A DNA stretch of 64,000 nt, taken from Gammaproteobacteria bacterium. GTDB taxonomy: Bacteria; Pseudomonadota; Gammaproteobacteria; Eutrophobiales; Eutrophobiaceae. Positions within the stretch are counted from its first letter, which is position 1. Each line of letters begins with the position of its first letter. Under the pieces are notes generated by a model. That model saw nothing but the letters and a program-made list of their open reading frames with translations. It was not told where the DNA came from and ran no database searches. This document shows, in pieces, positions 14,275 through 33,695 of the stretch. Position numbers and translations under genes: made by a program. Location: assembly GCA_963422205.2 (NCBI GenBank), contig CAXMWX010000012.1, positions 1 through 64,000 of the forward strand, written 5' to 3'.

Positions 14275-14292
14275 TTTAATTATAACAAGCGG

Positions 14293-14811: not shown

Positions 14812-14813
14812 TT

Positions 14814-16133: not shown

Positions 16134-16135
16134 AG

Positions 16136-17759: not shown

Positions 17760-17762
17760 GTC

Positions 17763-19430
17763 ATGCCTGCCCTGGCGAAGGTGTTGAAACTTCCCCGACC
17801 GCCTGCCCAATTGAAAGGAGCAGCGCCCGCATCAGCGCTGGAAGGTATCAATGAGCATCAACGCAGGATAGTGCTTAACCGCAAGCAACTGGTGCAGATC
17901 ATCCTAGCAGAGCATCAGGCCGGGGTTTCTATTCGGGTAGCAGCCAGGAACCTGGTGGCAGCGATTGTGGCCGGTCAGGTAGCAGAGGCGACCCGTACCG
18001 CCGCCCGTTCGCTGGCCAAGGGCAGCAAGCCCTCTCCCAGCCATCAGGTCTTGGAGCGCTGGACAAGCGCCTATATGAAGCAGGGGATTAACGGTCTTAT
18101 TCCGAAGCATAAAGGCTCACAGCGTAAGGCGTATGGTTGGGAGGCGAGGGCCTTGGAACTGTATCAGCGACCAGTGAAGGCGGCCATGAGTACGGTGGCC
18201 TACTGGTTGCAGGACGAGGGCTTTGAGAGTGCCACGATAAGCCGGGTACGCCGCTATCTTAACTCCCTACCCGCCCGGCTCACCACCAGCGCACCGAAGC
18301 GTTTAGGTCAGCATTACCATCGCCAGAACGTAACACCGTATGTGGTGCGCGATGCGTCCGTGCTGCCAGTCGGATTTATCTATGAGGGCGATGGGCATAC
18401 CTGTGATGTGCATATTGCCCACCCTAAGACGGGCAAGGCGTATCGGCCGGAACTCACGGTCTGGCTGGATGTGCGCAGTCATTATTGTGTCGGCTGGTAT
18501 CTGGATAATGCAGAGAAGGCGACCAGCACGCTGTTCAGCTTATCCCATGCCATCACTTCACACGATCACGTGCCGGCCGCCATTCATGTTGACCCCGGTT
18601 CAGGCTTTAAGAACAAGCTGATGGTCGGTGAAGCGGTGAGTTACTGCGAGCGCCTGTCCATTGAGTTCATGGCGGCCCTGCCGGGCAATGCCAGAGGTAA
18701 GGGTCTGGTGGAAGGGTTCTTTCATATCTTCGAGGAGCGCTGTGGCAAGCGGTTTGATACCTACTGCGGGCATAATCGCACCGACCATGCACTAAGTGAC
18801 TTAAGCGGCAAGGTGAAGCGTGGCGAGATCATCCTGCCTACCCAGGCGCAGTATAGGGATGCTATCACGGCGTTCATTGACCGCTACAACCACACAGCAC
18901 AGCGGGGCTTAGGATGTCCACCGGCTGATCTCTGGCAGCAGTTGGAGCAGACACCATTAGAGACACCTGCCGAGGCCCTTATGCGGCCGCAGGCGGTGCG
19001 GGTGGTGCGCCGTGGCCAGGTAGAGCATGACCGACGGCTGTATCGTCACGTTGAGCTGGCCAGCTACGAGGGGCAGGAGATAGCGCTGGAGTATAACTTG
19101 CACAACGATGCTTATGTGACCATCCGCACCTTGACCGGGCAGTTCATTTGTGAGGCTGAACAGGTCGAACCTAAGCCCTGGCTGCCGGCCTCACGTCTTG
19201 AGGAGCAGGAACTGAAACGGCTCAAAGGGCAGATTGCTCGCAAGGAAAAAGCCATTACTGAGGATAAGGCCCGGGCCGGGCTGGCGATTACCCACGAGCA
19301 TGACCTTGCTCACCTTAACGCCATGCCTGTCCTTAATGACCCTGAGCCACTGGCACATAACACGAGAGCCGGCCCCGCGAGCGCAGCGAGTGCTGTGGGT
19401 ATCGATTTGAATGTCTTTGATGATGATTAA
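17763..19430 (+). CDS. Mu-type DDE transposase (MuA-like)
   Basis: EGDGH, VDPGSGF, KGLVEGFF catalytic motifs; Mu-transposase C-terminal region. Confidence 0.93.
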   Translation: MPALAKVLKLPRPPAQLKGAAPASALEGINEHQRRIVLNRKQLVQIILAEHQAGVSIRVAARNLVAAIVAGQVAEATRTAARSLAKGSKPSPSHQVLERWTSAYMKQGINGLIPKHKGSQRKAYGWEARALELYQRPVKAAMSTVAYWLQDEGFESATISRVRRYLNSLPARLTTSAPKRLGQHYHRQNVTPYVVRDASVLPVGFIYEGDGHTCDVHIAHPKTGKAYRPELTVWLDVRSHYCVGWYLDNAEKATSTLFSLSHAITSHDHVPAAIHVDPGSGFKNKLMVGEAVSYCERLSIEFMAALPGNARGKGLVEGFFHIFEERCGKRFDTYCGHNRTDHALSDLSGKVKRGEIILPTQAQYRDAITAFIDRYNHTAQRGLGCPPADLWQQLEQTPLETPAEALMRPQAVRVVRRGQVEHDRRLYRHVELASYEGQEIALEYNLHNDAYVTIRTLTGQFICEAEQVEPKPWLPASRLEEQELKRLKGQIARKEKAITEDKARAGLAITHEHDLAHLNAMPVLNDPEPLAHNTRAGPASAASAVGIDLNVFDDD

Positions 19431-19445
19431 GGGGGTACATCAACC

Positions 19446-20495
19446 ATGAGTAAGCTACTGCATCATCCGGCCGCAGCGATGGTCTATCCGAATGGCTACA
19501 CGGCCAGTTATACCGCTACTGACAAGCAGTCAGTCTGTCAGGTCATTGACTGGCTGAATGCCGGGCAGGTACCGGGGATTGCCAACCCGCGCACCCAGGC
19601 ACAATTAGCCAAGGCCACGGGGGTCAGTGCCGCCAGCATCAGTCAGTTGCTGAAAGGCACTTATCCGAGTAGCCCGGGCAAGCACGTCAAAGCCCTGGCG
19701 GATTATGTCGCCCGTTGCCGGCAGCGTGAAGAGGAGAGACTGGATGCCGGGCAAGTGGTAGCCACGTCCGTGTTCAAGGTCGTACAGAAAGTCTGCAAGC
19801 GTGCCAGGCTGATGCGGGATATTGGTTATGTCTCGGCCGTGGTGGGTACGGGCAAGACCACGGCCTTGAAGTTCTATGCGGAGAACAGCCCTGGGGTCTA
19901 TCTGATTGAGGGTGATCCTGACATGAGTGCGGCGGTGTTTATCAACGAGTTGGTGGTACTCACCAACGCCACTGTCGCCAGGGCAAACAAGTACAGCCAA
20001 GGCACCAAGGCTGACCGCTATGCGGCTGTGGTACATGCCTTGTCTGGCACGGATTCGCTGCTCATTCTGGATGAGGCTGACAAGGTCAGAGACACCACGC
20101 TGGAGTACCTGCGGCGCTTATCCGACAAGGCTGGCATTGGTGCGGTGCTATCGGGTACCCAACGACTCTATGCCATGCTTGCCAATCCAGCCGCCGGTGG
20201 ACGCTTTGACCAGCTTGGCTCCCGAGTGGGTTTCCGGTCACAACTGATTAAGTCCATCCTGGAGAAGGATTCTCAGTTGATGGTCAGTGCTGCCTTTGAG
20301 GGTGAGGACGTTGATCTCACCGATGAGATACAGGCGGCTTTCTGGCAGGTCTGTGGTGGTTCTGCCCGTACCTTATCCAAGCTCATCCCGAATGTGCGGG
20401 ACTTTGGCCTGCGCAAGGGTCATGTGTTGAGTGCCGATCTGATCTATGCCGCCGGTCAGCAGACGATGGGTTTGAAGCCGGTGAGGGTGAGTTAG
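19446..20495 (+). CDS. MuB-like AAA ATPase with N-terminal HTH
   Basis: VGTGKTT Walker A, LLILDEAD Walker B. Confidence 0.92.
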   Translation: MSKLLHHPAAAMVYPNGYTASYTATDKQSVCQVIDWLNAGQVPGIANPRTQAQLAKATGVSAASISQLLKGTYPSSPGKHVKALADYVARCRQREEERLDAGQVVATSVFKVVQKVCKRARLMRDIGYVSAVVGTGKTTALKFYAENSPGVYLIEGDPDMSAAVFINELVVLTNATVARANKYSQGTKADRYAAVVHALSGTDSLLILDEADKVRDTTLEYLRRLSDKAGIGAVLSGTQRLYAMLANPAAGGRFDQLGSRVGFRSQLIKSILEKDSQLMVSAAFEGEDVDLTDEIQAAFWQVCGGSARTLSKLIPNVRDFGLRKGHVLSADLIYAAGQQTMGLKPVRVS

Positions 20496-20693
20496 TGACA
20501 TCTAAGCAGGAACAAACCTATCCGGTGAGTTGGCCGAGATTTACAGCATGGTTTCTGGTGGCTTTGCTGCTGCTGATTTTTGGCTGAGACATACTTTGCG
20601 CCAAAGAGAGAAGAAAAAATACAGGCTTCGGTGAAGCCAGCGAATGAAAAAATCATCTATGTGATCAAATGCCCGGCCACGCACCATGACTGA
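20495..20693 (+). pseudogene. Small membrane protein with apparent 1-nt insertion in a T5 run (20577-20581)
   Basis: Removing one T gives a 65-aa ORF overlapping both the MuB stop and the next start. Confidence 0.45.
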
Positions 20694-20949
20694 CAAGCAA
20701 ATCAACATCCTGGCTGTCAGAGATGACGATAACGTCTTTGTGCAATGTGCGCAGTTGCCTGGGCAGACATGGGTACGTTCCATTGAAGAGAACCGCATCA
20801 CAAAAGACCTCATCGCCGTTGAGTGTGTTATTGCCAAGGTGCTGGAAGAGATTGTCTTCGCCTATCGGCTACACCATGAATGCAAGGCCAAGACCAGGCG
20901 GGTAACTATCACCGTACAGCTGGATGCCGATGACAACCAAGCCACTTAA
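20686..20949 (+). CDS. Hypothetical phage protein
   Basis: Overlapping ORF in the early operon. Confidence 0.55.
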   Translation: MTDKQINILAVRDDDNVFVQCAQLPGQTWVRSIEENRITKDLIAVECVIAKVLEEIVFAYRLHHECKAKTRRVTITVQLDADDNQAT

Positions 20950-21736
20950 TCTCATCTCTCTGGGTGCGGGTGTGCAGAGCAGCACAATGGCACTGATGGC
21001 CGCATCAGGTGAGCTGGCTCCGATGCCGGATGCGGCCATCTTTGCCGACACGGGTGCCGAGCCGGGTTACGTCTATGACTGGCTGGAGCGGCAGTTGCCT
21101 TTTTTGGTATACCGGGTGATGCAGGATAAGGGCTTAGAGCAAGCCATACACGACTCGTTCACAGCGGATAAATGGTATCCCGCCATCCCGTTCTTTGCCT
21201 TATCGCCTGAGGGCAAAAAGGGCATCCTGCGCCGCCAGTGTACCAGCCATTTTAAGCTCAAGCCGATCATACAAAAGACCCGTGAGTTGCTAGGGCTAAA
21301 GCCAGGCGAGCAAGCTAGGAAAGGCATACAGGTCATCCAGTGGGTGGGTATATCCTTAGATGAGGCGCACCGCATGAAGCCATCCCCACAGCATTACATT
21401 AAAAGCATCTATCCCCTGGTGGATAACAGAATAACCCGTCATGACTGCTACCAATGGATGGAGCAGCACGGCTATCCTGAACCGGCCCGTTCCGCCTGCT
21501 ACTTCTGCCCCTATCATTCACGTACATCCTGGCGCTGGATCAAAGACAACCACCCCGATGAGTTCGACCGGGCAGTCAAGATAGATGCACTGATACGCAC
21601 AGGGGTCAGAGGTGTTCAGCATCAGTTGTTTATCAATGACAGCAGACAGCCGCTGGATGAGATCGATCTCACCCAAGCCGATGATCACCAGATCGATCTG
21701 TTCGGCAATGAATGCGAGGGGATGTGTGGCGTATGA
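20930..21736 (+). CDS. PAPS reductase-like / PP-loop adenine nucleotide alpha-hydrolase
   Basis: ISLGAGVQSS, FADTG.E, RQCT..FK, SACYFCPYH, C-terminal CEGMCG. Confidence 0.8.
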   Translation: MTTKPLNLISLGAGVQSSTMALMAASGELAPMPDAAIFADTGAEPGYVYDWLERQLPFLVYRVMQDKGLEQAIHDSFTADKWYPAIPFFALSPEGKKGILRRQCTSHFKLKPIIQKTRELLGLKPGEQARKGIQVIQWVGISLDEAHRMKPSPQHYIKSIYPLVDNRITRHDCYQWMEQHGYPEPARSACYFCPYHSRTSWRWIKDNHPDEFDRAVKIDALIRTGVRGVQHQLFINDSRQPLDEIDLTQADDHQIDLFGNECEGMCGV

Positions 21737-22074
21737 ACACTATCACCCGCGATACTGTACTGGTCGCCTTGCGTGAACACATCGGCAAGGAAAACGGCAT
21801 CAGCGCTGCCCGCCTGGTACGAAAAATATCCGGCGATATGTTCTGCCTGCTGGATGAGCGGCAGTTGCGGCAGGTGATCGTTGAGTTACGCCATGAGGGA
21901 CATCATATCGGCGCACATCCCTCAGCCGGTTATTACCTGTGCCGAAGCCCAGCAGAGTTAAATGAAGCCTGCCTATTTCTCTATGAGCGGGCAATGACTT
22001 CCCTTACCCAAATCTCGGCCATGAAGCGCATATCACTGCCTGATCTGGCCGGCCAACTGAAACTACCCACATAA
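21733..22074 (+). CDS. Winged-helix phage protein
   Basis: ERQLRQVIVELR.EG..IG....GYY motif. Confidence 0.7.
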   Translation: MNTITRDTVLVALREHIGKENGISAARLVRKISGDMFCLLDERQLRQVIVELRHEGHHIGAHPSAGYYLCRSPAELNEACLFLYERAMTSLTQISAMKRISLPDLAGQLKLPT

Positions 22075-22086
22075 CAGGAGGACACC

Positions 22087-22602
22087 ATGAACATTCACAC
22101 CATAGAACAACTAACCGCTGAGTATGCAGCGGCCCATCGTGCGCTGGCTGGCTTTGCGACCGAGTTGGATGATGAGTTACAACACATCAAACGTCAGCGC
22201 CGAGAGAGGCTGAATGCGCTTATCTCCCAGGCAGCGGATGCCAAGCTCAAGCTCAAAGCCGCCATTGAACAGGCGCCGGCCTTATTCGATAAACCCCGCA
22301 CCCGCATCCTGCATGACATCAAGGTGGGGTTCCGTAAAGGCAAGGGTCGACTGAAATGGCAGAGTGCGGTAGGCGTGATCAATAAGATCAAGCAACTGTT
22401 TGATGATGAGTGTGGGGTGTTGATCAAGACCGAGGAGAAGCCTAACAAGGATGCCCTGGAGAAGCTGCCGACTGCTGAGTTAAAGCGCTTAGGGATAACC
22501 ATTGAGGGGGCCGGCGATCAGGTCGTTATCCGTCCGGTTGAGGGTGACATTGACAAGCTGGTGGATGCCTTGCTGGTCGATGAGTTGGGGGAAGGCGAAT
22601 GA
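22087..22602 (+). CDS. gam: Host-nuclease inhibitor Gam-like protein
   Basis: LFDKPRT..L..IKVGFRKGKG; IKTEEKPNKDAL. Confidence 0.8.
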   Translation: MNIHTIEQLTAEYAAAHRALAGFATELDDELQHIKRQRRERLNALISQAADAKLKLKAAIEQAPALFDKPRTRILHDIKVGFRKGKGRLKWQSAVGVINKIKQLFDDECGVLIKTEEKPNKDALEKLPTAELKRLGITIEGAGDQVVIRPVEGDIDKLVDALLVDELGEGE

Positions 22603-22817
22603 GCGGCGATGCGCTGCACCCATATTATCCGTTCGATGGCGGTTATATGGGTAAGGCCCCGCTGATGGTGCGTGACAGTGCCGAGCGTTGCCGCCTCGCC
22701 AGTGATTTCACTGTAGCAGAGTGCCGGGCCGCCCTTGCCAATGAGCGGATGGTGTTACAAAAGACAGTGGTGCGCCGTATCCAGCGGCGATTACGCAAGC
22801 TGGGAGAGGTGGCATGA
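22599..22817 (+). CDS. Hypothetical phage protein
   Basis: ATGA coupling in the early operon. Confidence 0.55.
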   Translation: MSGDALHPYYPFDGGYMGKAPLMVRDSAERCRLASDFTVAECRAALANERMVLQKTVVRRIQRRLRKLGEVA

Positions 22818-23002
22818 AGATCAAGGCCGATATTGATTTCACTGTCGCTGACGATCAGAATCACGTCATTGCCACCCTTAACTTGCGCCTTCCCTTTGCG
22901 CCATTGATGGCGGTCATGAGCCGGTTATATGCGCTTTACACCTCGCTTAAAGGGCATCCAGCGGGACAGCAAGCCCTGTACATAGGTAAGGCTGATGAGT
23001 GA
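22814..23002 (+). CDS. Hypothetical phage protein
   Basis: ATGA coupling, GGAGAGG RBS. Confidence 0.5.
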   Translation: MKIKADIDFTVADDQNHVIATLNLRLPFAPLMAVMSRLYALYTSLKGHPAGQQALYIGKADE

Positions 23003-23231
23003 GATCGACAGCCAACCGAAGCAATCGCACATCTGGTGCTTTGATGCCGGCATGTTGGGTGAGGCGTTGGAGGCCTTATATCAATCACGGCAGCCAGACG
23101 ATGCCGAGGCGAGAGAAGCGGCTGCCGAGGAAATGGAGCAGATTCGGCGTTTCCTTAATTCGGACATTGCCAGGGAGTATAAGCTGATTGTGAAGATCAG
23201 CAAGCGGCGGCCGCCTGCTGAGGAGACATAA
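22995..23231 (+). CDS. Hypothetical phage protein
   Basis: Overlapping ORF in the operon. Confidence 0.55.
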   Translation: MSEIDSQPKQSHIWCFDAGMLGEALEALYQSRQPDDAEAREAAAEEMEQIRRFLNSDIAREYKLIVKISKRRPPAEET

Positions 23232-23429
23232 ATGACTGAATGGTACTTGCTCTATCTCATCACCGTATGTGCGCCAGCCTGTACTTCCGTTGAACTCATT
23301 GTGCCAGTCGCCAATGAGCAGAGTTGTCATGCCTTAGCTCGTGCCATCCGCCTGCCTGAGAAGGCCAGTGCAGTAGCGCAGTGTCAGCTAAAAGCCATCA
23401 AGACAGGCCAGCCGGAGTGGGCGGCGTAA
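23232..23429 (+). CDS. Hypothetical Cys-containing small protein
   Basis: GAGGAG RBS, abuts the previous stop. Confidence 0.5.
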   Translation: MTEWYLLYLITVCAPACTSVELIVPVANEQSCHALARAIRLPEKASAVAQCQLKAIKTGQPEWAA

Positions 23430-23434
23430 GACCG

Positions 23435-23896
23435 ATGCGTTCTGCCCGTAAAATCGATCACCGCCAGCGTTGTTATACCTTGCTGGCGATAGCGAAAAAG
23501 CAGTTAGGTCTGGATGAGGATACCTATCGGGCTTTCCTTGCCAGTCAGGGCGCCAGGGTCAAGGATGGGCGCATCAGTGCCACCACGATGAGTATCGGGC
23601 AGTTGATGGGTGCGGTGGATGTCCTGCACAAGCGTGGCTTCAAACCCACCCGCAGCAACAAGTATGAGCAGACCTGGCGGCAGCGTATGGAAGGCAAGAT
23701 AGCGAAGCTGTGGTTCTTAGGGTATGAGCATGGTGTCATCCGTGATGAGAGCAAACAGGCAATGGAGAATTGGTGTCTTAAGGTGGCGGGAGTGGCAGCG
23801 ATTAACTGGTTTGAAGCGAAACATTACAACCGCTGCATTGAGGGCTTGAAGTCCTGGCTGAAGCGTGAAGGAGTACCCATCGATGGGGGATGCTGA
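23435..23896 (+). CDS. gemA: GemA (Mu gp16, DUF1018) family protein
   Basis: IAKKQLGLDEDTYRAFL; KI..LW; IEGLKSW..R. Confidence 0.85.
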   Translation: MRSARKIDHRQRCYTLLAIAKKQLGLDEDTYRAFLASQGARVKDGRISATTMSIGQLMGAVDVLHKRGFKPTRSNKYEQTWRQRMEGKIAKLWFLGYEHGVIRDESKQAMENWCLKVAGVAAINWFEAKHYNRCIEGLKSWLKREGVPIDGGC

Positions 23897-24290
23897 TACA
23901 CAGCTTAAGTTCAGCATTGACACGGCTTCTCTGCCGCCATTGGTCAAGCGCTTAATCCAGCTGATCGGCTTATCTGAGACCTACAAACTCTTAACAGCAC
24001 GGGGTGCTTTGACCACAGTCATCCCGGCCACGCTGGAACGTTCCTCGGAGTTGCAAAAGATCATCTCACCCGCCGCGGTCAAGGCACTGGTGGCTGCCAT
24101 GCCCAATGCCCGCCTGGAATTGACCTCAACGCGCAAGTTCCGTGATCAGCTACGCAATGCCACTATCCGGCAAGACCGCCAGAGCATGACCTACCCGGAA
24201 CTGATGCAAAAGTATGGCCTGACCCGGCGGATGCTGATCAATATCTGCGGTTCGGAGGACAGAATACAGAAAACAGAAGACAGATTGTAA
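23883..24290 (+). CDS. mor: Mor/C-family transcriptional activator
   Basis: LP...L..LIG; RN..I...L..KYGLT.R C-terminal HTH; last gene before the late promoter. Confidence 0.8.
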   Translation: MGDADTQLKFSIDTASLPPLVKRLIQLIGLSETYKLLTARGALTTVIPATLERSSELQKIISPAAVKALVAAMPNARLELTSTRKFRDQLRNATIRQDRQSMTYPELMQKYGLTRRMLINICGSEDRIQKTEDRL

Positions 24291-24351
24291 GGAATGCCGC
24301 AGGGCGGCATACGCTATAGTCCGTCCTCTGATCTCTGTCCTCCGTATTCTG
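24253..24351 (+). repeat. Heptamer-repeat hairpin element, copy 1
   Basis: (CAGARRA)n arm, core GGAATGCCGC-agg-GCGGCATAC, (TCYTCYG)n arm. Confidence 0.75.
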
Positions 24352-24402
24352 ACTACGTGAAATATTTCACGCATACAAAACCCGGCTGTAATCGGTCATG
24401 CT
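24350..24402 (+). promoter_or_regulatory. Late (lysis/packaging) promoter: palindrome plus candidate -10 CATGCT
   Basis: TACGTGAAATATTTCACGCA at 24354-24373, repeated at 11543 and 4685. Confidence 0.75.
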
Positions 24403-24411
24403 GGCCGTATC

Positions 24412-24849
24412 ATGCGATTAAGTCCGAACTTCACCCTGGCCGAGATGGAACGCTCCCCGACGGCCCTGCGCTTAGGAATAGATAATCAGGCACCGGATGA
24501 TGCGATTAAGCAACTCACATTGCTTTGCCAAGAGGTACTGCAACCTCTGCGTGATCACTTCGGCCCGGTCACTGTGTCCAGTGGTTATCGTTGCCCGGCA
24601 CTGAACCAGCACATTGGTGGATCGGTACGCTCGCAGCACTGCTTGGGTCAGGCTGCCGATATTGTCATTACTGGTGTGACCCCGCTTGATGTGTGTCGCT
24701 GGTTTGTGGATGTGCAGATCAGTTTTGATCAGCTGATCTACGAGGGTACCTGGACACATATCAGCATCAGTGACACCCCTAGAGCTAAAGTACTGACCGC
24801 ACACTTTTCGAATGGTCGGGTACGCTACAGCCGGGGCCTGGTGGCATGA
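24412..24849 (+). CDS. Endolysin, peptidase M15 family
   Basis: LSPNFTLAEM; SSGYRCPALN..IGGS..SQH..GQAAD; W.HIS. Confidence 0.92.
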   Translation: MRLSPNFTLAEMERSPTALRLGIDNQAPDDAIKQLTLLCQEVLQPLRDHFGPVTVSSGYRCPALNQHIGGSVRSQHCLGQAADIVITGVTPLDVCRWFVDVQISFDQLIYEGTWTHISISDTPRAKVLTAHFSNGRVRYSRGLVA

Positions 24850-24911
24850 GCAACCCATGTTGTTACTTCACTGTTATCTTTTCACTCTTTAATTAACCAT
24901 AGGAGAGACCC

Positions 24912-25301
24912 ATGAAACTTATGCACTTTATCCTTATGCTGCTCATCATGCCGCTACTTGGCTTAACATCCGGCTGCGGCTCCCTGCCCTGGAACCCGCA
25001 GGGCAATGCGGGCATCACCAATGTACAAATGCAGGGCTGCGAAGCGGATGAGGGTATTGATGGTCAGTTGTTCTGCGATATCCATATCCTGGACGGCAAG
25101 GAGAAGACGAATGTGGATGTAGAAGTCATCAGAGACTTAGATGAGAACACCATCAAGGCCAGCTACACGGCCAGGAACGTAGAAGCCTTTGAAGGCCAGG
25201 CCATACGTGGTGAAGTAGAGCGGGCGATCGCTGAGACATTCAGGGAAGTCCTGCCGGGCATGACCCGTGAAATCATTGAGGGCATCACGGGCAGTCCATG
25301 A
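24912..25301 (+). CDS. Phage lipoprotein
   Basis: Signal peptide with lipobox LTSG-C. Confidence 0.7.
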   Translation: MKLMHFILMLLIMPLLGLTSGCGSLPWNPQGNAGITNVQMQGCEADEGIDGQLFCDIHILDGKEKTNVDVEVIRDLDENTIKASYTARNVEAFEGQAIRGEVERAIAETFREVLPGMTREIIEGITGSP

Positions 25302-25876
25302 GTGCGGTGGTTCATCTCATTCACGGCTTTAATGTCTGGAAGCCAGAGCGCACGGTGGGTAAGCTGGCGCCGTATTTCCTGAGTGCTGGCCTGCCAACCA
25401 ACATGGTCAATTATCTCTGGACGGGGCTATACCTTGCCCGTAAACGAAACTCCAGGGTAGCAGCCAGGTTGTGCAAGGTGGTGAGGCCAGATGACATTGT
25501 GGTCGGGCACTCCAATGGCTGTGCGATTATCAAGCTGGCCTTGGATTTAGGCATGGTCTGCCAACGCGCCATCCTGATTCATCCGGCCTTGCCGGTCAGC
25601 GTCACCTTTCCTGAGCGGGTAGCGCGCATTGATGTCTGGCATGATGCTTCCGATGTGCCAGTCAAATGGGCGGCGATTTTAAGCAGCCTCATACCCGATA
25701 GCTGGTTTGCTGCCCGCCCCTGGGGGGCGGCCGGGGCCTATGGGATTAACACCCGCGATGCACGCATCCACAACCACAACGAATCGGCATGTGGCTTCCC
25801 AGATCTTGGACACTCCGGGCTGTTTCGCTGGGATGTGTTGCCCTTGCTGGGGCCGAAGGTGGTGGCCTTGCCATGA
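25298..25876 (+). CDS. Alpha/beta hydrolase in the lysis cassette
   Basis: IHGF oxyanion motif, GHSNG nucleophile elbow, D.V, GHSG. Confidence 0.8.
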   Translation: MSAVVHLIHGFNVWKPERTVGKLAPYFLSAGLPTNMVNYLWTGLYLARKRNSRVAARLCKVVRPDDIVVGHSNGCAIIKLALDLGMVCQRAILIHPALPVSVTFPERVARIDVWHDASDVPVKWAAILSSLIPDSWFAARPWGAAGAYGINTRDARIHNHNESACGFPDLGHSGLFRWDVLPLLGPKVVALP

Positions 25877-26097
25877 CCAGCGCAGATAACAACTTACAAC
25901 GCGCCATTGGTCGTATGGAAGGCAAGCTCGATGCGGTGCATGAGGAGATCTGCCAGTTACGTCAAACCCATCAGTCCTTAGACCGGCGCCTCCGGCATGC
26001 TGAGATACAGGCGGCCAAGTACGGCGGCACCACCGGAGCGGTGGTGGCCGTCTGTGTTGAGATGCTGAAGACCAAGATCGGACTTGGCGGTGGCTGA
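25873..26097 (+). CDS. Small coiled-coil protein with C-terminal hydrophobic segment (XhlA/holin-like)
   Basis: IGRMEGKLD...LDRRLR..E followed by a hydrophobic tail; usual position before DUF1804. Confidence 0.6.
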   Translation: MTSADNNLQRAIGRMEGKLDAVHEEICQLRQTHQSLDRRLRHAEIQAAKYGGTTGAVVAVCVEMLKTKIGLGGG

Positions 26098-26595
26098 ATG
26101 GCCTATACCCAAGGCAAGCGCACCGCCGTGCGTGGCAGCTATGTCTATGAGCGCCTGCCCCTGAAAGCTGCCGCTGCCAAACATCACATCAACCATCAGA
26201 CCGCCCGACGCTGGAAGCAGGCGGCTTTGGAACAAGGTGATGACTGGGACAAGGCGAGAGCCGCCTCACGGGTCGCCGCCGGTGGCTTAGGTGAGCTGAC
26301 CGCACAGTTAGTCGAAGACTTTGCCCTGCTGTTTCAAGCCACTGTTGCGCAGATCAAGCAATCGACCACGCCAGCCAACGAGAAAGCGGAAGCCCTGGCC
26401 AGGCTGACTGATGCTTACACCAAGATGATGGCAGCGGCGGCCAGGGGGAGTCCTGCGATCGCCGAGTTATCCATCGTATTACAAGTCCTGGAAGAGCTAA
26501 CCGCCTTTATTCGCCAACACTACCCCCAGGACTTGTCACGTTTCTCAGTCATCCTGGAACCCTTCGGTCAGCATATCACCCAGGTGTTCAAGTGA
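26098..26595 (+). CDS. DUF1804 family protein, probable terminase small subunit
   Basis: MAY....R..VR..YV...TARRWK....GDDWDKARAA. Confidence 0.85.
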   Translation: MAYTQGKRTAVRGSYVYERLPLKAAAAKHHINHQTARRWKQAALEQGDDWDKARAASRVAAGGLGELTAQLVEDFALLFQATVAQIKQSTTPANEKAEALARLTDAYTKMMAAAARGSPAIAELSIVLQVLEELTAFIRQHYPQDLSRFSVILEPFGQHITQVFK

Positions 26596-28340
26596 TTGCC
26601 AGTGCGACCAGCTCCAGAGCGTTCCTGGATGAGTTAAGCGATCTGGCCCGCACACTGCGCCAGGAGATTGAAGCGCATGCGGCGGGTATTGACCCCTCAG
26701 CCGAGGCCATCAAGCAACGCCGCCAGCGGGTGTTGCAGAGTGACTTTCAGTTCTTTGCTTACACCTACTTCCCGCACCATATCCGTGGTGAACCCTCGCG
26801 CTTCCAGGCACACTGCTGTCAGTTGTTCCCGAAGCTGCTTTTCTCGGCTCGCGGTGCCAAGCACGTCTGGGTTGCCCCCCGAGGTGAGTGCAAGAGTTCA
26901 TTGCTGGGTAAGATCGGCGTGGTCTATGTGCATGTGATTGCCTTGCTGCAACGTCCCGACATCCGCCGGGAAGTGGGCTGGCGGGGCAAGCCTCCATACT
27001 TCATTGACTATGTGAATCTCTTAGGGGCCGAGACCCGCCTGCCGACCAAGCTGATGGAGGTCGGCAAGGTAGAACTCACTGTCAATGCCGCACTGGCAAT
27101 GGATTTTCCTGAAGTGACTGGCCGAGGTGAACTCTGGAAAGTCGGTGAGTATATCGGCCGCACGGGTGTTAAGGTTGAACCCTTCGGCGCTGAACAAGCC
27201 ATCCGTGGCACCTTTGCCGGAGCATCCAGGCCCAAGCTCCTGATACCGGATGATCTCATCACCGACAAGGAAGCCAAATCCCCCACTGAGCGCGATAACC
27301 GCTGGAACTGGCTGGAAGCCGCTGTCGATTATCTCGGCCCGCCTGATGGCACTGTCAAGCTCTGTGGTGCGGGTACGATCTTAAATAGTGATGATCCCAT
27401 CTCCCGTGCCAAACACACCATCGGCTATCAGGTGCATCACTTCAAAGCCATTGAACGGCTGCCGGCACGCATGGACTTGTGGGATCAGTGCGAGCAGTTG
27501 ATCCGCAATGAGGACAAGCGGGTACAGGACAGGCTGACACAACAAGGCAAGGAAGTCACCGATGCAGCGCTGCCCTCCTATCAGTTCTATCTCAAGCACA
27601 AGCGCAAGATGGACAAGGGAGCGATCACATCCTGGCCAGCCGTGCGCTCACTCTACTGGCTAATGAAGCAGCGTGCCAAGAACCCTCGCAGCTTCGGTAC
27701 AGAAATGCAGGGCGAGGCACGTAACGATGAGGACAGGGTGTTTACCGACATGCAATTCTGGGTCTCACGCCTTAAGCACTGGGTGTATCTCGCTGGCTGT
27801 GACCCGTCTATGGGCAAGAGTGAGACTGCCGATCCTTCGGCCATTGTGGTGGGCGGGCTGGACTTGGAAAGCAAACGCCTGCACATCATCCATGCCAGCA
27901 TCAAGCGCCGGCTGCCGACCAAGCTCTTTGCTGACATGCGCGCCATGCAAGGTGAGTACAACATCCAGGGCTGGGGCTTTGAGAATAACAGTGCCTTTGA
28001 GTTCATGCGTACCCGGTTCATCAAGGATGCACTTGACCATCAGGTCATCCTGCCCCTGGTACCCTTTACCGAGACCGTACCCTTGGAAGTCCGTATCGAA
28101 TCCTTAGAGCCATTCATCAATGGGGCGGAAGCCAGTATTGCTTTTCATGCCAGCCTGACACCGCTATTGAACGAGCTTAACGACTTCCCATTACCACAGG
28201 CCAATCACCACTACGATGGCCTATCGGCTTTGTACCTGCTGTTCAAGCTCGCCACCACCCGCCGCTATGCTGTGCCTGCTATCAAGACAGCCAGACCGGG
28301 CCGGCGAGGATTAACACGTACCCACTACCGAGGTTACTGA
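26592..28340 (+). CDS. Terminase large subunit
   Basis: APRGECKS, RP.L.IPDD, DPSMGK..DPSAI, HYDG. Confidence 0.9.
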   Translation: MIASATSSRAFLDELSDLARTLRQEIEAHAAGIDPSAEAIKQRRQRVLQSDFQFFAYTYFPHHIRGEPSRFQAHCCQLFPKLLFSARGAKHVWVAPRGECKSSLLGKIGVVYVHVIALLQRPDIRREVGWRGKPPYFIDYVNLLGAETRLPTKLMEVGKVELTVNAALAMDFPEVTGRGELWKVGEYIGRTGVKVEPFGAEQAIRGTFAGASRPKLLIPDDLITDKEAKSPTERDNRWNWLEAAVDYLGPPDGTVKLCGAGTILNSDDPISRAKHTIGYQVHHFKAIERLPARMDLWDQCEQLIRNEDKRVQDRLTQQGKEVTDAALPSYQFYLKHKRKMDKGAITSWPAVRSLYWLMKQRAKNPRSFGTEMQGEARNDEDRVFTDMQFWVSRLKHWVYLAGCDPSMGKSETADPSAIVVGGLDLESKRLHIIHASIKRRLPTKLFADMRAMQGEYNIQGWGFENNSAFEFMRTRFIKDALDHQVILPLVPFTETVPLEVRIESLEPFINGAEASIAFHASLTPLLNELNDFPLPQANHHYDGLSALYLLFKLATTRRYAVPAIKTARPGRRGLTRTHYRGY

Positions 28341-29878
28341 TGCCAGACTCAACCATTACTCGCCTGACCCGCCGGCACATACGCACCGAGGTGGCCACAA
28401 GAGCAGTTGACCCCCTGTTCACCTCCGCACTACAGGTACTGCCCAACCCTGACCGGGTACTAAGAAAGATGGGCAAGTCTTATGAAGTCTATGCCGATAT
28501 GTTCGGTGATGCCCATATCCTGGGCGAGCTACGCGCCGTGCGTGCCGCCCTCTTGGCCTTTGAATGGCAACTTACCCCCGGCGGTGACAGGGCGGCTGAT
28601 GTGCGGGCCGTGGAGTTGTGCGATACGCTGATGGCTGGCCGACCTGCTCCCCGGATGCACTGGACAGATGTTCTCTGGAGCATGGGACTGTCGGTGTTCT
28701 ATGGCTTTGCGGTGCATGAAGTGGTGTGGGAACACGCAGATGGCCTGTGGCTGCCCGCAGCGATCCTCGACCGCCCGCAGCGCCGCTTTGTGTTCGATGC
28801 CGATAATCACCTGCGCATTTTAACCCGAAGCGCCCCCGTGACCGGTGATCTGTTAGGGGATTACAAATGGCTGATCACCTCGCACATGGCCAGCCATGAG
28901 AACCCCTATGGCGTAGCGGTACTCTCGGCCTGCTTCTGGCCGTATGTGTTCAAGCATGGCGGTTTTAAGTTCTTTAGCAAGTTCTGTGAGAAATACGGCA
29001 TCCCCTGGGCGATTGGCAAATACCCACCCGGGACAGCAGAGACTGAGCAGGACAAACTGCTGGATAGCTTGGCGGCCATGATCGAAGAGGCCTGCGTGGT
29101 CACCGATACCGATAGCCAGATTGAACTCATTGAAGCCACAGCCAATGCCCGACCGATACAGGAACGGCTGATCGACCTCTGCAATCGGGAACTCTCCAAG
29201 GCACTCACTTCACAAACCCTGGCCACCGAGATACAGGGGCAGGGCGCCAGAGCCGCCAGCCAGACCCACAGAGAAAGGGAGATCACTGTCAATCAGTCTG
29301 ACCGCATCGTCATTGAGCAGTCCTTCAATCAACTCTTTGCCTGGATAACCCAACTCAATGTGGCCGATGCCGCCCCGCCACGCTTTCGCTTCTATGAGGA
29401 AGCAGAAGCACGTAAAGACATGGCCGAGTATCTCAATGAAGCCCACCAACTGATCGATATGAAACGCTCAGAAGTCTACGAGCGCCTGCAACTGACCGCA
29501 CCACAGGCCGATGATGAGATCATACCAAGAGCCAGCTCACCAGCAGAGCAACCAGAGGGTAATACGGCAACACCAGAGGCAGCCGAGTTCACGTACTGCC
29601 CGGCTTGCAGCCAGGGCAGTGACCAGGGTTATACCTTTGCTGAGGATGATGCTGACCCCCTGGTCAATCAAGCAGTCAATGCGGCGGATGCGGTCATTGA
29701 GACCCTGCCGGCCAGCGTCTATGACACCTTGCTGGAATTTGAACAGGCGGGCAAGTCATTAGCGGAGTTCGAAGCGGCCCTGCCGGAACTCATGCCTGAG
29801 CTGGATGAGACGGCACTGGCTCAGATCGTCCAACTGGTCTTGACCACCAGTTACCTTGCTGGCATGGATGATGGGTAA
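28340..29878 (+). CDS. Portal protein (Mu gp29, DUF935)
   Basis: NPYG..LS.CFWP..FK.GG..F..F.EKYG.PW. Confidence 0.92.
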   Translation: MPDSTITRLTRRHIRTEVATRAVDPLFTSALQVLPNPDRVLRKMGKSYEVYADMFGDAHILGELRAVRAALLAFEWQLTPGGDRAADVRAVELCDTLMAGRPAPRMHWTDVLWSMGLSVFYGFAVHEVVWEHADGLWLPAAILDRPQRRFVFDADNHLRILTRSAPVTGDLLGDYKWLITSHMASHENPYGVAVLSACFWPYVFKHGGFKFFSKFCEKYGIPWAIGKYPPGTAETEQDKLLDSLAAMIEEACVVTDTDSQIELIEATANARPIQERLIDLCNRELSKALTSQTLATEIQGQGARAASQTHREREITVNQSDRIVIEQSFNQLFAWITQLNVADAAPPRFRFYEEAEARKDMAEYLNEAHQLIDMKRSEVYERLQLTAPQADDEIIPRASSPAEQPEGNTATPEAAEFTYCPACSQGSDQGYTFAEDDADPLVNQAVNAADAVIETLPASVYDTLLEFEQAGKSLAEFEAALPELMPELDETALAQIVQLVLTTSYLAGMDDG

Positions 29879-29880
29879 AT

Positions 29881-29971
29881 CAGAAGACAGAGGACTGAAT
29901 ACAGACTGGTGGAATGCCGCTCTGCGGCATACTTTATTTTCCGTCTTCCGTCATCTGTCATCTGTCCTCCG
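29881..29971 (+). repeat. Heptamer-repeat hairpin element, copy 2
   Basis: cagaaga cagagga ctgaata cagactg / GGAATGCCGC-tct-GCGGCATAC / tcttccg tcatctg tcatctg tcctccg. Confidence 0.75.
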
Positions 29972-29986
29972 AATAGAGCGGCCATA

Positions 29987-31222
29987 ATGCCTGAAGTCAA
30001 GCTCGGTGCGGTACCTTTCACTGAGGCCATTGCCTATCTCAAGGACAAGGTCGATATACCCACTGAACACTGGGATGACTTGCTTGGTGATATTAGGGCC
30101 AGGAGCTTTGCTGTGGCCGGTGCAGTCAAGGTCGATATGGTCAAAGACTTCAGGGAAGCACTGATCAAGGTGAGAGAGAAAGGTGGGACGATTGCTGACT
30201 TCCGAAAAGCGTTCGATCGTATCGTAGCCAGGTATGGCTGGAGCTACAAGGGCAGCCGAGGCTGGCGAACACGGGTCATCTTTGGCAACAACATGCGATC
30301 CGCATCAATGGCCGGTCGCTGGCAACAAATGCAGCGCACTAAAGCCACCCGTCCCTATCTGGAATACTTATCAGTCGGCGATACCCGTGTCCGACCTGAA
30401 CATGCCGCCTGGCATGGGCTTATTCTGCATATTGACGATCCCTGGTTTGATACGCACTACCCGCCCAATGGCTTCGGCTGTCGCTGCACGGTCAGAACCT
30501 TGAGTGAACGCCAGCTTGAGCGGGAAGGTAAGACTTTAAGCAAAGCCCCGGCACTTAAGAGAACCAAGCGCATCAATACCCGTACCGGGGAAGTCTATGG
30601 CGATGTCCCCAAGGGCATTGGTGTGGGCTGGGATTATAACGTCGGCAAGGCCTGGATTGCCCCGGAGAGTGTCTTTGGACAGAAGCTCGCCAGCCTGCCC
30701 AAACCCCTGCGTGATGCCGCCCTTGAACAGTTGCCTAAGTTCACCCGCCACCTGCATCGGCCGTATAAGCGCTGGGCAGAGCAGGTGCTTCAACCTGACT
30801 ATCAGACACAGAACAAACAAAGAGTGGTTGGCTATCTGAGCGCACCTGTTGTGAATTATCTTAAAAGCCTGAAAGATGAGAAATTGGTACCTAAAAACCT
30901 GGCTATTACGCTGACGGATGTCCGCCTAAGACGCATGGTCAGGGATTTGAAAAAGCGTGAGGGGATAGATATTCCGGACGATGAACTACTCAACCTGTCC
31001 AGACACATTGAACATCCGCAGGCCGTGTTGTTTGATAAAGTCAATCCGGCACTGCTCTATATTTTTGATGCCGACGAGGATGTGCGTTTGGGTAAGATAG
31101 TGGTTCGGGTGAACTACCAGGAAAGAGGTAAGCCCACTAACAGTATTCGCTCCGGCGGTATGGTGCGGCCTATTCATTTGAAAGATAAGGTACAGTATAA
31201 ATTGATAGAGGGAGGTTTATAG
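29987..31222 (+). CDS. MuF head morphogenesis protein with ~160-aa C-terminal extension
   Basis: PF.EAI.Y, D.RVRP.H, YPPNGFGCRCTV, GWDYNVG, then an extra domain. Confidence 0.9.
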   Translation: MPEVKLGAVPFTEAIAYLKDKVDIPTEHWDDLLGDIRARSFAVAGAVKVDMVKDFREALIKVREKGGTIADFRKAFDRIVARYGWSYKGSRGWRTRVIFGNNMRSASMAGRWQQMQRTKATRPYLEYLSVGDTRVRPEHAAWHGLILHIDDPWFDTHYPPNGFGCRCTVRTLSERQLEREGKTLSKAPALKRTKRINTRTGEVYGDVPKGIGVGWDYNVGKAWIAPESVFGQKLASLPKPLRDAALEQLPKFTRHLHRPYKRWAEQVLQPDYQTQNKQRVVGYLSAPVVNYLKSLKDEKLVPKNLAITLTDVRLRRMVRDLKKREGIDIPDDELLNLSRHIEHPQAVLFDKVNPALLYIFDADEDVRLGKIVVRVNYQERGKPTNSIRSGGMVRPIHLKDKVQYKLIEGGL

Positions 31223-31225
31223 ATG

Positions 31226-31348
31226 CCTGCCGCGTAGCGGGACGCCACCCAGGTCACAATGCCTGGCACCCCCGCATCGGGCTGTCACTATTGCTAAGAT
31301 AGGATCTCCCCGCTGGCCCGACGATTTTCCAGCTATTACGCAGCAGGT
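31226..31348 (-). ncRNA. Putative structured ncRNA convergent with MuF
   Basis: 11-bp closing stem (31226-31236/31337-31347), two internal arms, extended -10 promoter just upstream on the minus strand. Confidence 0.6.
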
Positions 31349-31353
31349 ACTTC

Positions 31354-31362
31354 AGTATAGCA
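31354..31362 (-). promoter_or_regulatory. Extended -10 promoter TG-C-TATACT
   Basis: Predicted +1 at ~31347-31348, the first base of the closing stem. Confidence 0.6.
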
Positions 31363-31404
31363 TCAAACCCGCTTCAAAGCAGCCGTAAATGGCTATTAAC
31401 CGCC

Positions 31405-31615
31405 CTCAAAATGATCACTTTTCGGGTAATTGTGAGCATAAAATGCACATTTTAGGATGATTTTTTGTACATTTTATTAGCATTAAATGCACATTTTTAT
31501 CTCAAAATGAACGTTTTTAAAATTCTACCCCCATCTGCCCGAAACCCTTATCCACACGAGCTTTCAGCGATTTTTTCTCTATTTTTCTCTGTCTCAAAAT
31601 GATCACCACCACCCA
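31405..31615. repeat. Prophage end: three putative transposase-binding repeats and terminal CA
   Basis: CTCAAAATGA at 31405, 31501, 31593; AGCAT(A/T)AAATGCACATTTT at 31435 and 31479. Confidence 0.7.
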
Positions 31616-31794
31616 CGAGGCGGCACAAGATCAGCGTTGCGCCTTTTTTTATCGTTGAGCAGGATGATGGCGAACAGGCCGTGTATACGATCTACCTTCG
31701 GTTCCTGAAAGAGGTGTTAGAACAGCGAGGCGGCAGCGCACAGCAGGAGGCAGCAGAGTGCATGGACAAAGACCCCTCGCTGGATTATCTGTGA
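31616..31794 (+). pseudogene. 3' remnant of a host gene interrupted by the prophage (thioredoxin-like conserved protein)
   Basis: Start-less frame RRHKISVAPFFIVEQDDGEQAVYTIYLRFLKEVLEQ...DPSLDYL*. Confidence 0.6.
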
Positions 31795-31825
31795 GTCGCC
31801 AGCCTGTCACCGCCACCCGCACGGC

Positions 31826-32800
31826 CTAGTATCGGGGCAAATCGATAGCTGCAAACACGGCCTCCAATTCATGATGAATCTTGCTCTGCATCGCCTGCAT
31901 GGTCAGCGCTTTCGTCAGGTGCGGGGCAAATTGCTCAATAAAATCATACATGAAATTGCGTAGATAGATACCGCGCCGAAAGCCAATTTTTGTCGTGCTG
32001 GATTCAAATAAATGGGACGCATCCAGCGCCACCAGATCCGCATCCAGCACCTTGTCATGGGCGATGCTGGCGATGATGCCCACCCCCATCCCCAGTCTGA
32101 CATAGGTCTTGATGACATCGGCATCGGCGGCGGTAAAGACAACGTTGGGCTGCAAGCCGGCCGCATTGAATGCCTTGTCCAGCTGAGAGCGTCCGGTAAA
32201 GCCAAAGACATAGGTGACAATCGGGTACTGCGCGATGCTGGATAGGGCCAATGTCGGTAAGGCGGCCAGGGGGTGATCCTGCGGCACGATCACGCTGCGG
32301 TTCCAGCGGTAGCACGGCAGCATGATCAGGGTGTCAAACAATTCCAGGGCCTCGGTGGCGATGGCAAAATCCACCGTGCCGTTGGCAGCCAGCTCCGATA
32401 TCTGCATGGGCGTGCCCTGGTGCATGTTCAGCGTCACATCGGCATATTTTTTCCTGAATTGGCTGATGATGGGCGGGAGAACATAGCGCGCCTGGGTGTG
32501 TGTGGTGGCAATAGATAAGGTGCCGCGATTCTCTGTGGTGAACTCCTGCGCCAGATGGCGAATATTCTCAACCTTGTCCAGTATCTCACCGGCCAGGGCG
32601 ATGATCGCCTTGCCAGCGGGCGTGATCTCCTTGAGGTGTTTACCGCTGCGGTTGAATATCCTCAAGCCCAACTCCTCTTCAAGCAGGCTGATTTGCTTGC
32701 TGATCCCCGGCTGTGAGGTGTGGATATTTTCAGCAGTGACCGAGACGTTGAGATGATATCGGGCGACTTCCCAGATATAGCGCAGTTGTTGCAGCTTCAT
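31826..32800 (-). CDS. cysB: LysR-family cys regulon activator CysB
   Basis: MKLQQLRYIWEV..TSQPGISKQI; IATTHTQARY; VTYVFGFTGRS. Confidence 0.95.
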   Translation of the reverse strand: MKLQQLRYIWEVARYHLNVSVTAENIHTSQPGISKQISLLEEELGLRIFNRSGKHLKEITPAGKAIIALAGEILDKVENIRHLAQEFTTENRGTLSIATTHTQARYVLPPIISQFRKKYADVTLNMHQGTPMQISELAANGTVDFAIATEALELFDTLIMLPCYRWNRSVIVPQDHPLAALPTLALSSIAQYPIVTYVFGFTGRSQLDKAFNAAGLQPNVVFTAADADVIKTYVRLGMGVGIIASIAHDKVLDADLVALDASHLFESSTTKIGFRRGIYLRNFMYDFIEQFAPHLTKALTMQAMQSKIHHELEAVFAAIDLPRY

Positions 32801-32906
32801 TTTTATACTTTTTAATTATAAAAATATGTGAAAAAATTACTTTTAATTATAGTTAAGCCTGTAATAAAGTCGCAAGTTCAATTCTCATCTCCTTTAATAC
32901 GGCGGT

Positions 32907-33695
32907 ATGGATCCTGCACTGACACTTGCTGGCTTTCTCGTTGGCTTTATCGTTGGCCTCACTGGTGTGGGCGGTGGCTCGCTGATGACGCCGATACTGG
33001 TGTTGGTATTTGCTGTTAAGCCAGCCGTTGCCGTGGGGACTGATCTGCTGTATGCCGCGGTCACCAAAAGCGGCGGCATCCTCGCCCATCAGGTACGTAA
33101 CACGATTAACTGGCAGGTAGTCGGCTGGCTGTCTCTGGGCAGCATCCCGGCCACCCTGGTGGCGCTCGGCATCATCGGGCAACTGCACCAGCAGGGCGTG
33201 AATTACGATCACATCATCACCCATACGCTTAGCTTTGCGCTGGTGCTGACGGCGCTGGCAATCATCTTTAAAGACAAACTCATGCGCCTGGGCGAAAAAG
33301 AGCAGTTTGCCATTATCAAGGCATGTCATACTACCTTGCTTAAACCCGCCACTGTCCTGTCCGGTGCGCTCATAGGTGCCCTGGTCAGTTTCTCATCTGT
33401 CGGGGCCGGTGCCCTGGGAGCCGCCGTTTTATTTTTTCTCTATCCGGGAATGAGGGCAATACGGATCATCGGCACTGATCTGGCACATGCGGTGCCCATC
33501 ACGGCGATAGCCGGTGCAGGTCACTGGCATATCGGCACGGTGGACTTTACCTTGCTGTTTGCGCTGCTCATCGGCTCACTGCCGGGCATTTATCTTGGCA
33601 GCCGGGTGGGGGCGGGCTTGCCGGATAAATATCTCAGGCCGATCCTCGCCACGGTACTGCTGTTGATCGGCAGTAAACTGGCAATCGCCGGATAG
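32907..33695 (+). CDS. TauE/SafE sulfite exporter family protein
   Basis: VGLTGVGGGSLMTP; AVGTDL; GTDLAHAVP. Confidence 0.92.
   Translation: MDPALTLAGFLVGFIVGLTGVGGGSLMTPILVLVFAVKPAVAVGTDLLYAAVTKSGGILAHQVRNTINWQVVGWLSLGSIPATLVALGIIGQLHQQGVNYDHIITHTLSFALVLTALAIIFKDKLMRLGEKEQFAIIKACHTTLLKPATVLSGALIGALVSFSSVGAGALGAAVLFFLYPGMRAIRIIGTDLAHAVPITAIAGAGHWHIGTVDFTLLFALLIGSLPGIYLGSRVGAGLPDKYLRPILATVLLLIGSKLAIAG

Follow-up and report, generated by a model that had tools for sequence, protein, structure and literature searches.

A candidate gene for a small structured RNA lies tail-to-tail with MuF in Mu-like transposable prophages

Among RNA antitoxins, those of type III consist of ToxI-like repeats and those of type I are 3′-overlapping antisense RNAs. 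The pRNA of phage phi29 is a structured phage RNA of ~120–170 nt, with a multi-helix junction and loop–loop pairing, encoded near a genome end beside packaging and head genes, and phage-associated motifs such as Mu-gpT-DE are among the entries of Rfam. In Mu-like phages packaging relies on TerS/TerL and is not known to need an RNA. Here we describe an element in a 64,000-nt stretch of DNA (the window: positions 1 to 64,000 of the forward strand of contig CAXMWX010000012.1, assembly GCA_963422205.2, from a gammaproteobacterium of the Eutrophobiaceae). The first half of the window is occupied by a Mu-like prophage whose last gene encodes MuF, a gp30-like minor head and DNA pilot protein, and directly beyond its stop codon, on the opposite strand, lies an element of ~120 nt with a compact predicted fold. 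On the comparative evidence set out below, this element is very probably a real RNA gene read from the minus strand.

In phage Mu, gp30 occupies the same position after the portal gene and aligns with the window's MuF over residues 9–376. The part of Iyer et al. (2017, PMC5512222) that deals with gp30 describes a BECR-type C-terminus that lacks the catalytic His and is inactive, and predicts that it binds RNA. Mu differs in that F overlaps G and there is no RNA gene, whereas in the window and in a clade of relatives the RNA abuts the MuF stop codon; it also differs in that MuF is the terminal gene of the window's prophage. Curvibacter phage TJ1 (MH766655.1), an isolated Mu-like phage, resembles the window's prophage in that MuF (40.6% identity across the full length) comes last, only 364 nt short of the end of the genome. 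The gap beyond it in TJ1 likewise contains a structured element convergent with MuF, which has a −10-like box and is followed by a terminator. TJ1 departs from the window in that its packaging arm runs opposite to the early genes and its element is a weak match to our model (12.4 bits, E 0.015 in 2 kb).

Resemblance to RNA antitoxins lies in an RNA gene that adjoins the gene for a product with a predicted RNase-toxin fold, in a convergent arrangement as in some type I pairs. Unlike the toxins of such systems, MuF is a virion protein without conserved catalytic residues, and the RNA occurs without MuF. Membership in type III was rejected, as there is no tandem repeat inside 31226–31347 and the RNA gene follows MuF in convergent orientation, where a type III antitoxin would precede its toxin gene on the same strand. 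With phi29 pRNA we draw an analogy of size, junction and location only and claim no relationship of sequence or model. As with the phage motifs in Rfam, a conserved structured RNA is tied to a phage structural gene. A search of Rfam 15 (4227 families), one of the checks that an earlier sequence-only reading of this locus had proposed, along with covariation and promoter conservation among homologues, gave no family that matches the element (E ≤ 10 in the window region, E ≤ 1 in nine loci). Nor did full-text literature searches, judged mostly on titles and abstracts, turn up a paper on an RNA beside MuF. We therefore place the element among the structured small RNAs borne by phages, a known kind, as a family not yet catalogued; it could be more than that if its link to the MuF C-terminal domain (MuF-C) were true.

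The 143 nt directly 3′ of the MuF stop codon occur three times in the window's own genome. G015, a related genome of the same family, has five copies of the element, four of which follow MuF homologues (~76% identity) or MuF fragments. A covariance model, R1, was built from eight distinct copies that come from three genomes in the family of the window, and their alignment gives a four-way junction on the minus strand with 37 pairs, 9 of which show compensatory changes. R1 matches in distant prophages, where MuF is only 35–50% identical, were again on the opposite strand directly after the MuF stop codon. A further model, R2, built from 22 sequences, found more loci than R1; the window copy scores 145 bits against R1 and 96.9 bits against R2. 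In an alignment of 30 sequences (A5), 90.2% of the cells pair, as against 39–45% when the partners are slid by one to three columns, and 29 of 32 pairs carry changes on both sides, although alignments A4 and A5 were fitted to the model and their pair counts are therefore inflated. None of 500 shuffles reached any of five measures on A5. As a partial check, minimum-free-energy folds of single sequences contained the closing stem and at least three hairpins in ~22 of the 30, with structures judged by eye. Covariation among homologues, another of the proposed checks, was observed in this model-fitted alignment, and it is comparative evidence of this kind that lifts the element above chance.

The sequence-only reading had described a three-helix element, and part of that description survives. 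The closing stem, P1, is present where it had been placed and pairs the 5′ and 3′ ends of the RNA. An arm formed by GCGGG/CCCGC with an inner CCAGG/CCTGG also stood, and is now P4. The other arm, TCGGGC/GCCCGA, was mis-paired: GCCCGA lies within the loop of P2, a separate hairpin, and the element forms a four-way junction of P1 to P4 (Table 1). Conserved sequence is found in the loop of P2 (GAAAAUCGCCG) and at the distal end of P4 (GGCG, then U or A), and the two are complementary to each other. Three loop–loop pairs fall in aligned columns, where 95% of cells pair; one of these cells is compensatory and six are wobbles. Inspection by eye showed pairing in other lineages as CGCU:AGCG, CGUU:GACG and, with the sides swapped, UGGC:GCCG. 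When the complementarity of the P2 and P4 loops was tested against shuffles sequence by sequence, the result was not significant, and short GC-rich loops pair by chance. From these sequence patterns we consider that the two loops probably pair with each other, as a candidate tertiary contact. When the own genome was searched for possible targets with complementarity to the loop of P2, none lay in the prophage.

Table 1. Coordinates of features in the window, from the RNA element outwards.
Feature	Position	Strand	Details
Structured small RNA body, four-way junction P1–P4	31226–31347	−	Covariance models, alignment
P1 (closing stem)	31226–31236/31337–31347	−	
P2	GCTGG 31312–31316 with CCAGC 31329–31333	−	Conserved loop AAAAUCGUCGGG on RNA strand
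P3	~31279–31311	−	GGGC pairs with C-run preceding GCTGG
P4	31237–31275	−	GCGGG/CCCGC 31237–31241/31271–31275; inner hairpin CCAGG/CCTGG 31249–31253/31262–31266
−10 box TATACT	31359–31354	−	TG extension 31362–31361; whole TGCTATACT 31362–31354
MuF, gp30-like minor head/DNA pilot protein	29987–31222	+	411-aa open reading frame
MuF-C/PBECR-like (BECR fold) C-terminal domain	30893–31189	+	Residues ~303–401
Prophage right end (attR region), Mu-type transposable	31366–31615	+	37% G+C; ~250 nt
CTCAAAATGA repeats, three	31405–31414, 31501–31510, 31593–31602		Right end
AAATGCACATTT palindromes	31441–31452, 31485–31496		Right end
Terminal CA	31614–31615		Prophage right terminus
LysR-type regulator, first host gene past prophage	31829–32800	−	Pfam HTH_1 and LysR_substrate
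Plus-strand arm	16575–31222	+	Early, lysis, terminase, portal, MuF genes
Minus-strand arm	1–11516, continuing off contig start	−	Protease, capsid, P2-like baseplate, fibre, sheath, tube, tape-measure genes
tRNA-Met gene	8906–8979	−	Structural arm, between major capsid gene and next head/tail gene
Trypsin-like peptidase	11855–12667	+	Central region
TIR-domain protein	12935–13597	−	Central region
Staphylococcal-nuclease homologue	14296–14841	−	Central region
S24-peptidase repressor, unusually long (526 aa)	14817–16394	−	Central region

Several features distinguish the two strands. C–A mismatches on the plus strand read as G–U pairs on the minus strand, as had been pointed out for the window copy, and across the alignment there are 77 G–U against 24 A–C (51 against 22 outside the window's family). 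P1 extends further when read on the minus strand, which has 37 pairs to the 33 of the plus strand. The near-consensus extended −10 first seen in the window holds up as well: it puts the RNA start at or just before P1, and a TAnnnT box ends 3–14 nt before P1 in 28 of 30 relatives, a count that is inflated by the inclusion of the −10 box in the 5′ flank of the model; the frequency in random 17-nt windows drawn from these loci is 11%. TATACT or TATAAT is present in 16 of the 30 aligned sequences. A simple promoter scan of the window gave no −35/−10 pair at the element, only the −10 box. On the RNA strand, the TJ1 element ends in a terminator of a GC hairpin and U5 (fold z −3.78), that of locus L146 in an extended P1 followed by a U-run, and that of L034 in a weak terminator consisting of a small hairpin and U4.

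The RNA abuts a MuF gene or MuF fragment, on the opposite strand, in 27 of the 30 aligned loci, a proportion that is biased because most MuF-adjacent loci were found by looking beside MuF. The model match falls −9 to +9 nt from the MuF stop codon in 23 of 24 measured loci (−38 in L120), a range that includes seven unpaired flank positions of the model. What follows on the far side of the RNA varies: the genome end in the window and in G015, a DNA methyltransferase gene in five loci (L004, L067, L068, L069, L089), a gpG-like gene in L098, a head protease gene in L097, further structural genes in L151 and genes without assigned identity in L005 and L120. Since this neighbour is variable, the RNA goes with the 3′ end of MuF and not with the genome end.

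Whole-genome searches with the model covered two samples of 150 other genomes (class; phylum), which overlap and comprise fewer than 300 distinct genomes. Four genomes matched (G189, G210, G157 and G280), and only the match in G189 adjoins MuF. G210 has a solitary copy (L146) beside a gene for an HD-GYP-type HD_5 protein with DUF3391, and G157 has one (L147) beside a GGDEF-EAL gene; a link of these two copies to cyclic di-GMP (c-di-GMP) genes may be coincidence and is too thin to build on. A sub-threshold match resembling a c-di-GMP-I-UAU riboswitch (27.7 against 65.9 bits) lies ~1.2 kb downstream of the RNA in L004. In G280 two tandem, sequence-divergent copies (L153 ~1500–1900; 60 and 45 bits), ~117 nt apart, adjoin a 145-aa truncated fragment of a Mu-like gpI protease between cold-shock and glutathione-synthetase-like genes, and L153 has the look of a remnant in which the RNA genes are all that is left of a prophage. 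The whole genomes G094, G210, G157 and G028, all of which carry the RNA, were searched with the window's MuF and yielded no homologue. The G094 copy is an exact match from the −10 box to P1, and its P3 is kept through double changes. This solitary copy lies ~900 nt from a CRISPR array (L034 129–598, 1494–1640; seven repeats, Rfam CRISPR-DR16) and adjoins an open reading frame (ORF) resembling a ribbon-helix-helix antitoxin.

The converse arrangement, MuF without the RNA, also occurs. Of 27 IMG/VR loci that have a full-length MuF and could be assessed, about 8 showed no RNA match even with filters off, and in phage Mu the overlap of F and G leaves no room for one. RNA-like elements may also follow MuFs of 381–382 aa whose C-termini do not align, where the matches are weak (16.6 and 8.6 bits). 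Pattern scans returned one locus from genome contigs, the G094 copy, and three from metagenome contigs, namely two chance matches in coding regions and the G094 copy again. The same scan of viral contigs returned none, and a looser one returned two loci, L069's contig again and the new locus L151.

The best-supported reading of these results is that Mu-like phages carry the element as an autonomous RNA gene, which persists once the prophage has decayed. It is present without MuF and beside a decayed Mu-like remnant, and is therefore autonomous; it persists in genomes in which no MuF was detected, and is therefore no obligate MuF antidote. We put even odds on this account taken as a whole, in which 31226–31362 on the minus strand is a self-contained gene for a compactly folded RNA of ~120 nt, tail-to-tail with MuF in Mu-like transposable phages, and of use to the lysogen; that the gene itself is real, as said above, is very probable. 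That the main function of the RNA would be autonomous and in trans, independent of MuF in cis, is a tentative proposal to which we lend nearly even weight. RNA polymerase would start 6–9 nt after the −10 box, and a read-through transcript could be trimmed back to a stable RNA, which is possible because P1 pairs the two ends. The elaborate fold and conserved loops point to recognition by a protein or ligand, not to simple antisense pairing, and intact copies that outlive the rest of a decayed prophage point to a trans-acting function that would benefit the lysogen. As far as sequence can tell, the product is most likely an RNA of the lysogen that acts in trans and binds a protein; among candidate partners, MuF-C is the first to consider.

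Besides the inflated pair and promoter counts, several observations weigh against this reading. The minus strand of the window copy, taken alone, folds no better than shuffles (z −0.76), and the plus strand also supports most of the helices. In the majority of phage copies a terminator is lacking and P1 directly adjoins the stop codon of MuF; this combination is unexpected for a free-standing moron and hints at a link to MuF or its mRNA. The loop–loop pairing rests on few independent changes, with the remainder read by eye. Finally, solitary copies may be relics in decay and not genes that have been retained.

Those hints bear directly on the alternatives. If the RNA were a ligand of the probably inactive BECR-fold MuF-C domain, it could be a cofactor of assembly or packaging carried in the virion with the pilot protein, a neutraliser of MuF-C, as the sequence-only reading had proposed, or a decoy in the lysogen that traps the MuF injected by incoming related phages. 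Such a role would account for the tight adjacency to MuF, within a few nucleotides of its stop codon, across deep divergence while the downstream neighbour varies, and it agrees with a domain that has a predicted RNase-toxin fold without a conserved His and with the prediction for Mu gp30 in the relevant part of Iyer et al. (2017, PMC5512222); a decoy would, moreover, explain retention in genomes without MuF. The adjacency count is biased, however, and only one of the four genomes matched in the whole-genome searches has the RNA next to MuF. Phage Mu carries MuF-C yet has no room for the RNA, about 8 of the 27 assessable full-length MuF loci lack a match, RNA-like elements may follow MuFs with non-aligning C-termini (the weak matches above), and solitary copies exist. 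We therefore regard a MuF-C ligand as rather unlikely, and the specific prediction of a MuF-C partner that acts as virion cofactor, or as a decoy in lysogens and remnants against incoming Mu-like phages, as doubtful. If true, the former would extend packaging or pilot RNAs to tailed phages other than the phi29 group, and the latter would be RNA-based superinfection immunity.

A transcript convergent with MuF might instead act in cis, as an antisense regulator of the late head operon that pairs with the mirror structure in the 3′ untranslated region (UTR) or intergenic part of the mRNA and controls its stability, processing or termination, much as some type I antitoxin RNAs overlap their toxin mRNAs at the 3′ end. 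The layout suits this: P1 touches the stop codon in nearly all phage copies, the absence of a terminator from most of them makes read-through into MuF antisense likely, both strands can form most helices, and collinear phages carry the element inside the operon, between MuF and gpG or the protease gene. Antisense pairing would nevertheless need far less than a four-way junction whose loops are conserved and probably make a tertiary contact, solitary copies have no target mRNA, and in TJ1, L146 and L034 the RNA would be terminated before any overlap, so that we judge cis-antisense regulation to be improbable. Mirror structures raise the further question of whether the functional strand is the plus strand, with a stabiliser, processing site or terminator in the 3′ UTR or intergenic region of the late mRNA and the minus-strand features incidental. 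On that strand the window copy folds mildly better than shuffles (z −2.51), 33 pairs are kept, and the structure begins 3 nt past the stop codon. The excess of G–U over A–C, about three to one, the longer closing stem, the conserved −10 box and the three terminators all favour the minus strand, and solitary copies have no upstream gene on the plus strand; a plus-strand function is accordingly very unlikely.

Other classes of element were considered and rejected. ARAGORN gave no tRNA or tmRNA match at the element, and our own comparison found no T- or D-loop motifs. A riboswitch is contradicted by the lack of a downstream gene on the RNA strand in phage copies and by L146, in which P1 is itself the terminator stem. 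The G–U bias and −10 box argue for RNA and against a strong gyrase site or other DNA-level signal, and no partner enzyme of a retron, bridge RNA or omega RNA was present among the neighbouring ORFs scanned.

The sequence-only reading had taken the last ~160 aa of MuF for an extra domain and a possible effector. Pfam Phage_Mu_F matches residues 57–169 only (67.5 bits, cutoff 29.6). PHROG 220 ("minor head protein and DNA pilot") covers residues 6–381 (E 3e-93), and tblastn alignments extend over 9–376 with phage Mu gp30, 7–393 with B3 and 1–411 with Curvibacter phage TJ1. The C-terminal region is not extra, because it is aligned with Mu gp30 to residue 376 and with PHROG 220 to 381: it is best taken as an ordinary MuF-C/PBECR domain, such as Mu gp30 also carries, and not as an added toxin. 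Kept across relatives and common to Mu, B3 and TJ1, this conserved C-terminus, together with the lack of a small ORF downstream, speaks against a MuF-fused polymorphic toxin with an immunity gene. A PDB sequence search with MuF gave no matches at E ≤ 1.

The suggestion of a BECR/PBECR-type fold without a catalytic His fared better. Among 23 homologous C-termini, Pfam at E ≤ 0.1 recognised MuF_C in 17 and PBECR3 in 6 (best E 1e-5 and 2.6e-6); the window's own C-terminus scores 14.8 bits against MuF_C, under the cutoff of 27.6. An AlphaFold2 (AF2) model of the last 170 aa has a predicted local distance difference test score (pLDDT) of 94.3. When this model was compared with 48,161 chains by VIA-align, the top rows were almost all BECR RNase toxins, with low Z scores of 3.5–4.7 (BrnT 4.7, RelE 4.3 and colicin D tRNase 4.2, then HigB, CdiA-CT, YoeB and ParE), and Foldseek with the same model gave nothing at E ≤ 0.001. 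The AF2 model of the whole protein is poor (pLDDT 62.6), and Foldseek on it was uninformative. Our own tests thus agree, weakly, with a predicted BECR/PBECR-type RNase-toxin fold; that fold, exemplified by RelE, colicin D and BrnT, combines an N-terminal helix with an antiparallel sheet. Active versions are marked by a catalytic His in the first helix and a C-terminal Thr or Ser. In alignments of 10 full-length and of 23 C-terminal sequences, none of the columns that are invariant or nearly so contains a His. The lack of a conserved His fits the inactive version described for Mu gp30, for which a predicted RNA-binding role is given in the part of Iyer et al. (2017, PMC5512222) cited above, and the window's domain is probably inactive as well.

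The absence of an ORF after MuF, which the sequence-only reading had noted correctly, has a simple cause: the prophage ends at ~31615, ~393 nt past the MuF stop codon. Between 31223 and 31825 there is no credible ORF, the only one of at least 40 aa on the plus strand being a 45-aa TTG frame in the AT-rich end repeats. The proposal that the RNA stands in place of an immunity gene is therefore not supported, and in relatives the gene beyond the RNA encodes a methyltransferase, gpG or a protease. All three copies in the own genome share sequence to ~31615 and then pass into unrelated flanks, and four of the five G015 copies end at the same terminus. Left ends (own-genome contig C5 ~4150; G015 ~694670) carry three related CTCAAAATGA copies in inverted orientation and a terminal CA too; the contig C5 end has a different flank and may belong to another prophage copy, the left end of the window's own prophage being off its contig. 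The segment 31366–31615 is a Mu-type transposable phage end, with transposase binding to its repeats predicted from their arrangement. The stretch 31434–31497, flanked by the transposase-type end repeats, consists of ~2.9 tandem copies of a 22-nt unit that includes the palindrome AAATGCACATTT. These repeats adjoin the RNA promoter on its upstream side and could be operator-like or host-factor sites.

The prophage occupies positions 1–31615 of the window as two divergent arms (Table 1). In the plus-strand arm, a DUF1804 small terminase, the large terminase and Portal_Mu genes precede MuF, and further upstream lie genes for a MuA-like transposase, a MuB-like ATPase, Gam, GemA and an M15 lysin, with the S24 repressor on the opposite strand. 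The minus-strand capsid, protease and P2-like tail genes are to the left of the repressor. The same two-arm topology is seen in a second copy (contig C8) and in a deletion derivative in G015, and MuF is therefore the terminal gene of the prophage. The central region between the arms (11855–16394) holds likely accessory or defence-type genes. Beyond the LysR-type gene, Pfam assigns TauE and then a metallo-beta-lactamase-fold gene. A megablast search of 28000–33000 against a phage collection gave no match.

Several Mu-like prophage copies or fragments are present in the own genome, on contigs C8, C9 and C14. Segments of C14 (~149–162 kb) are 94–98% identical to window positions 14814–15934 and 20952–22818, C9:173233–174676 is 100% identical to 3166–4609, and on C8 an IS3-like transposase remnant adjoins one prophage right end. 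Prophage repeats probably caused the contig breaks.

Taken together, these results correct the logic by which such a locus is annotated: where no ORF follows MuF, a transposable prophage ends, and no immunity gene has been lost. Covariation on this scale, along with a probable tertiary contact, is usually a mark of structured RNAs that perform a specific biochemical task, and survival of the RNA in decayed prophages suggests a benefit to the host. The RNA adjoins the gene for a virion protein whose predicted RNase-fold domain has been functionally unexplained since its RNA binding was predicted in 2017 (Iyer et al., in the part concerned with gp30), and it may be a candidate for the ligand of that domain.

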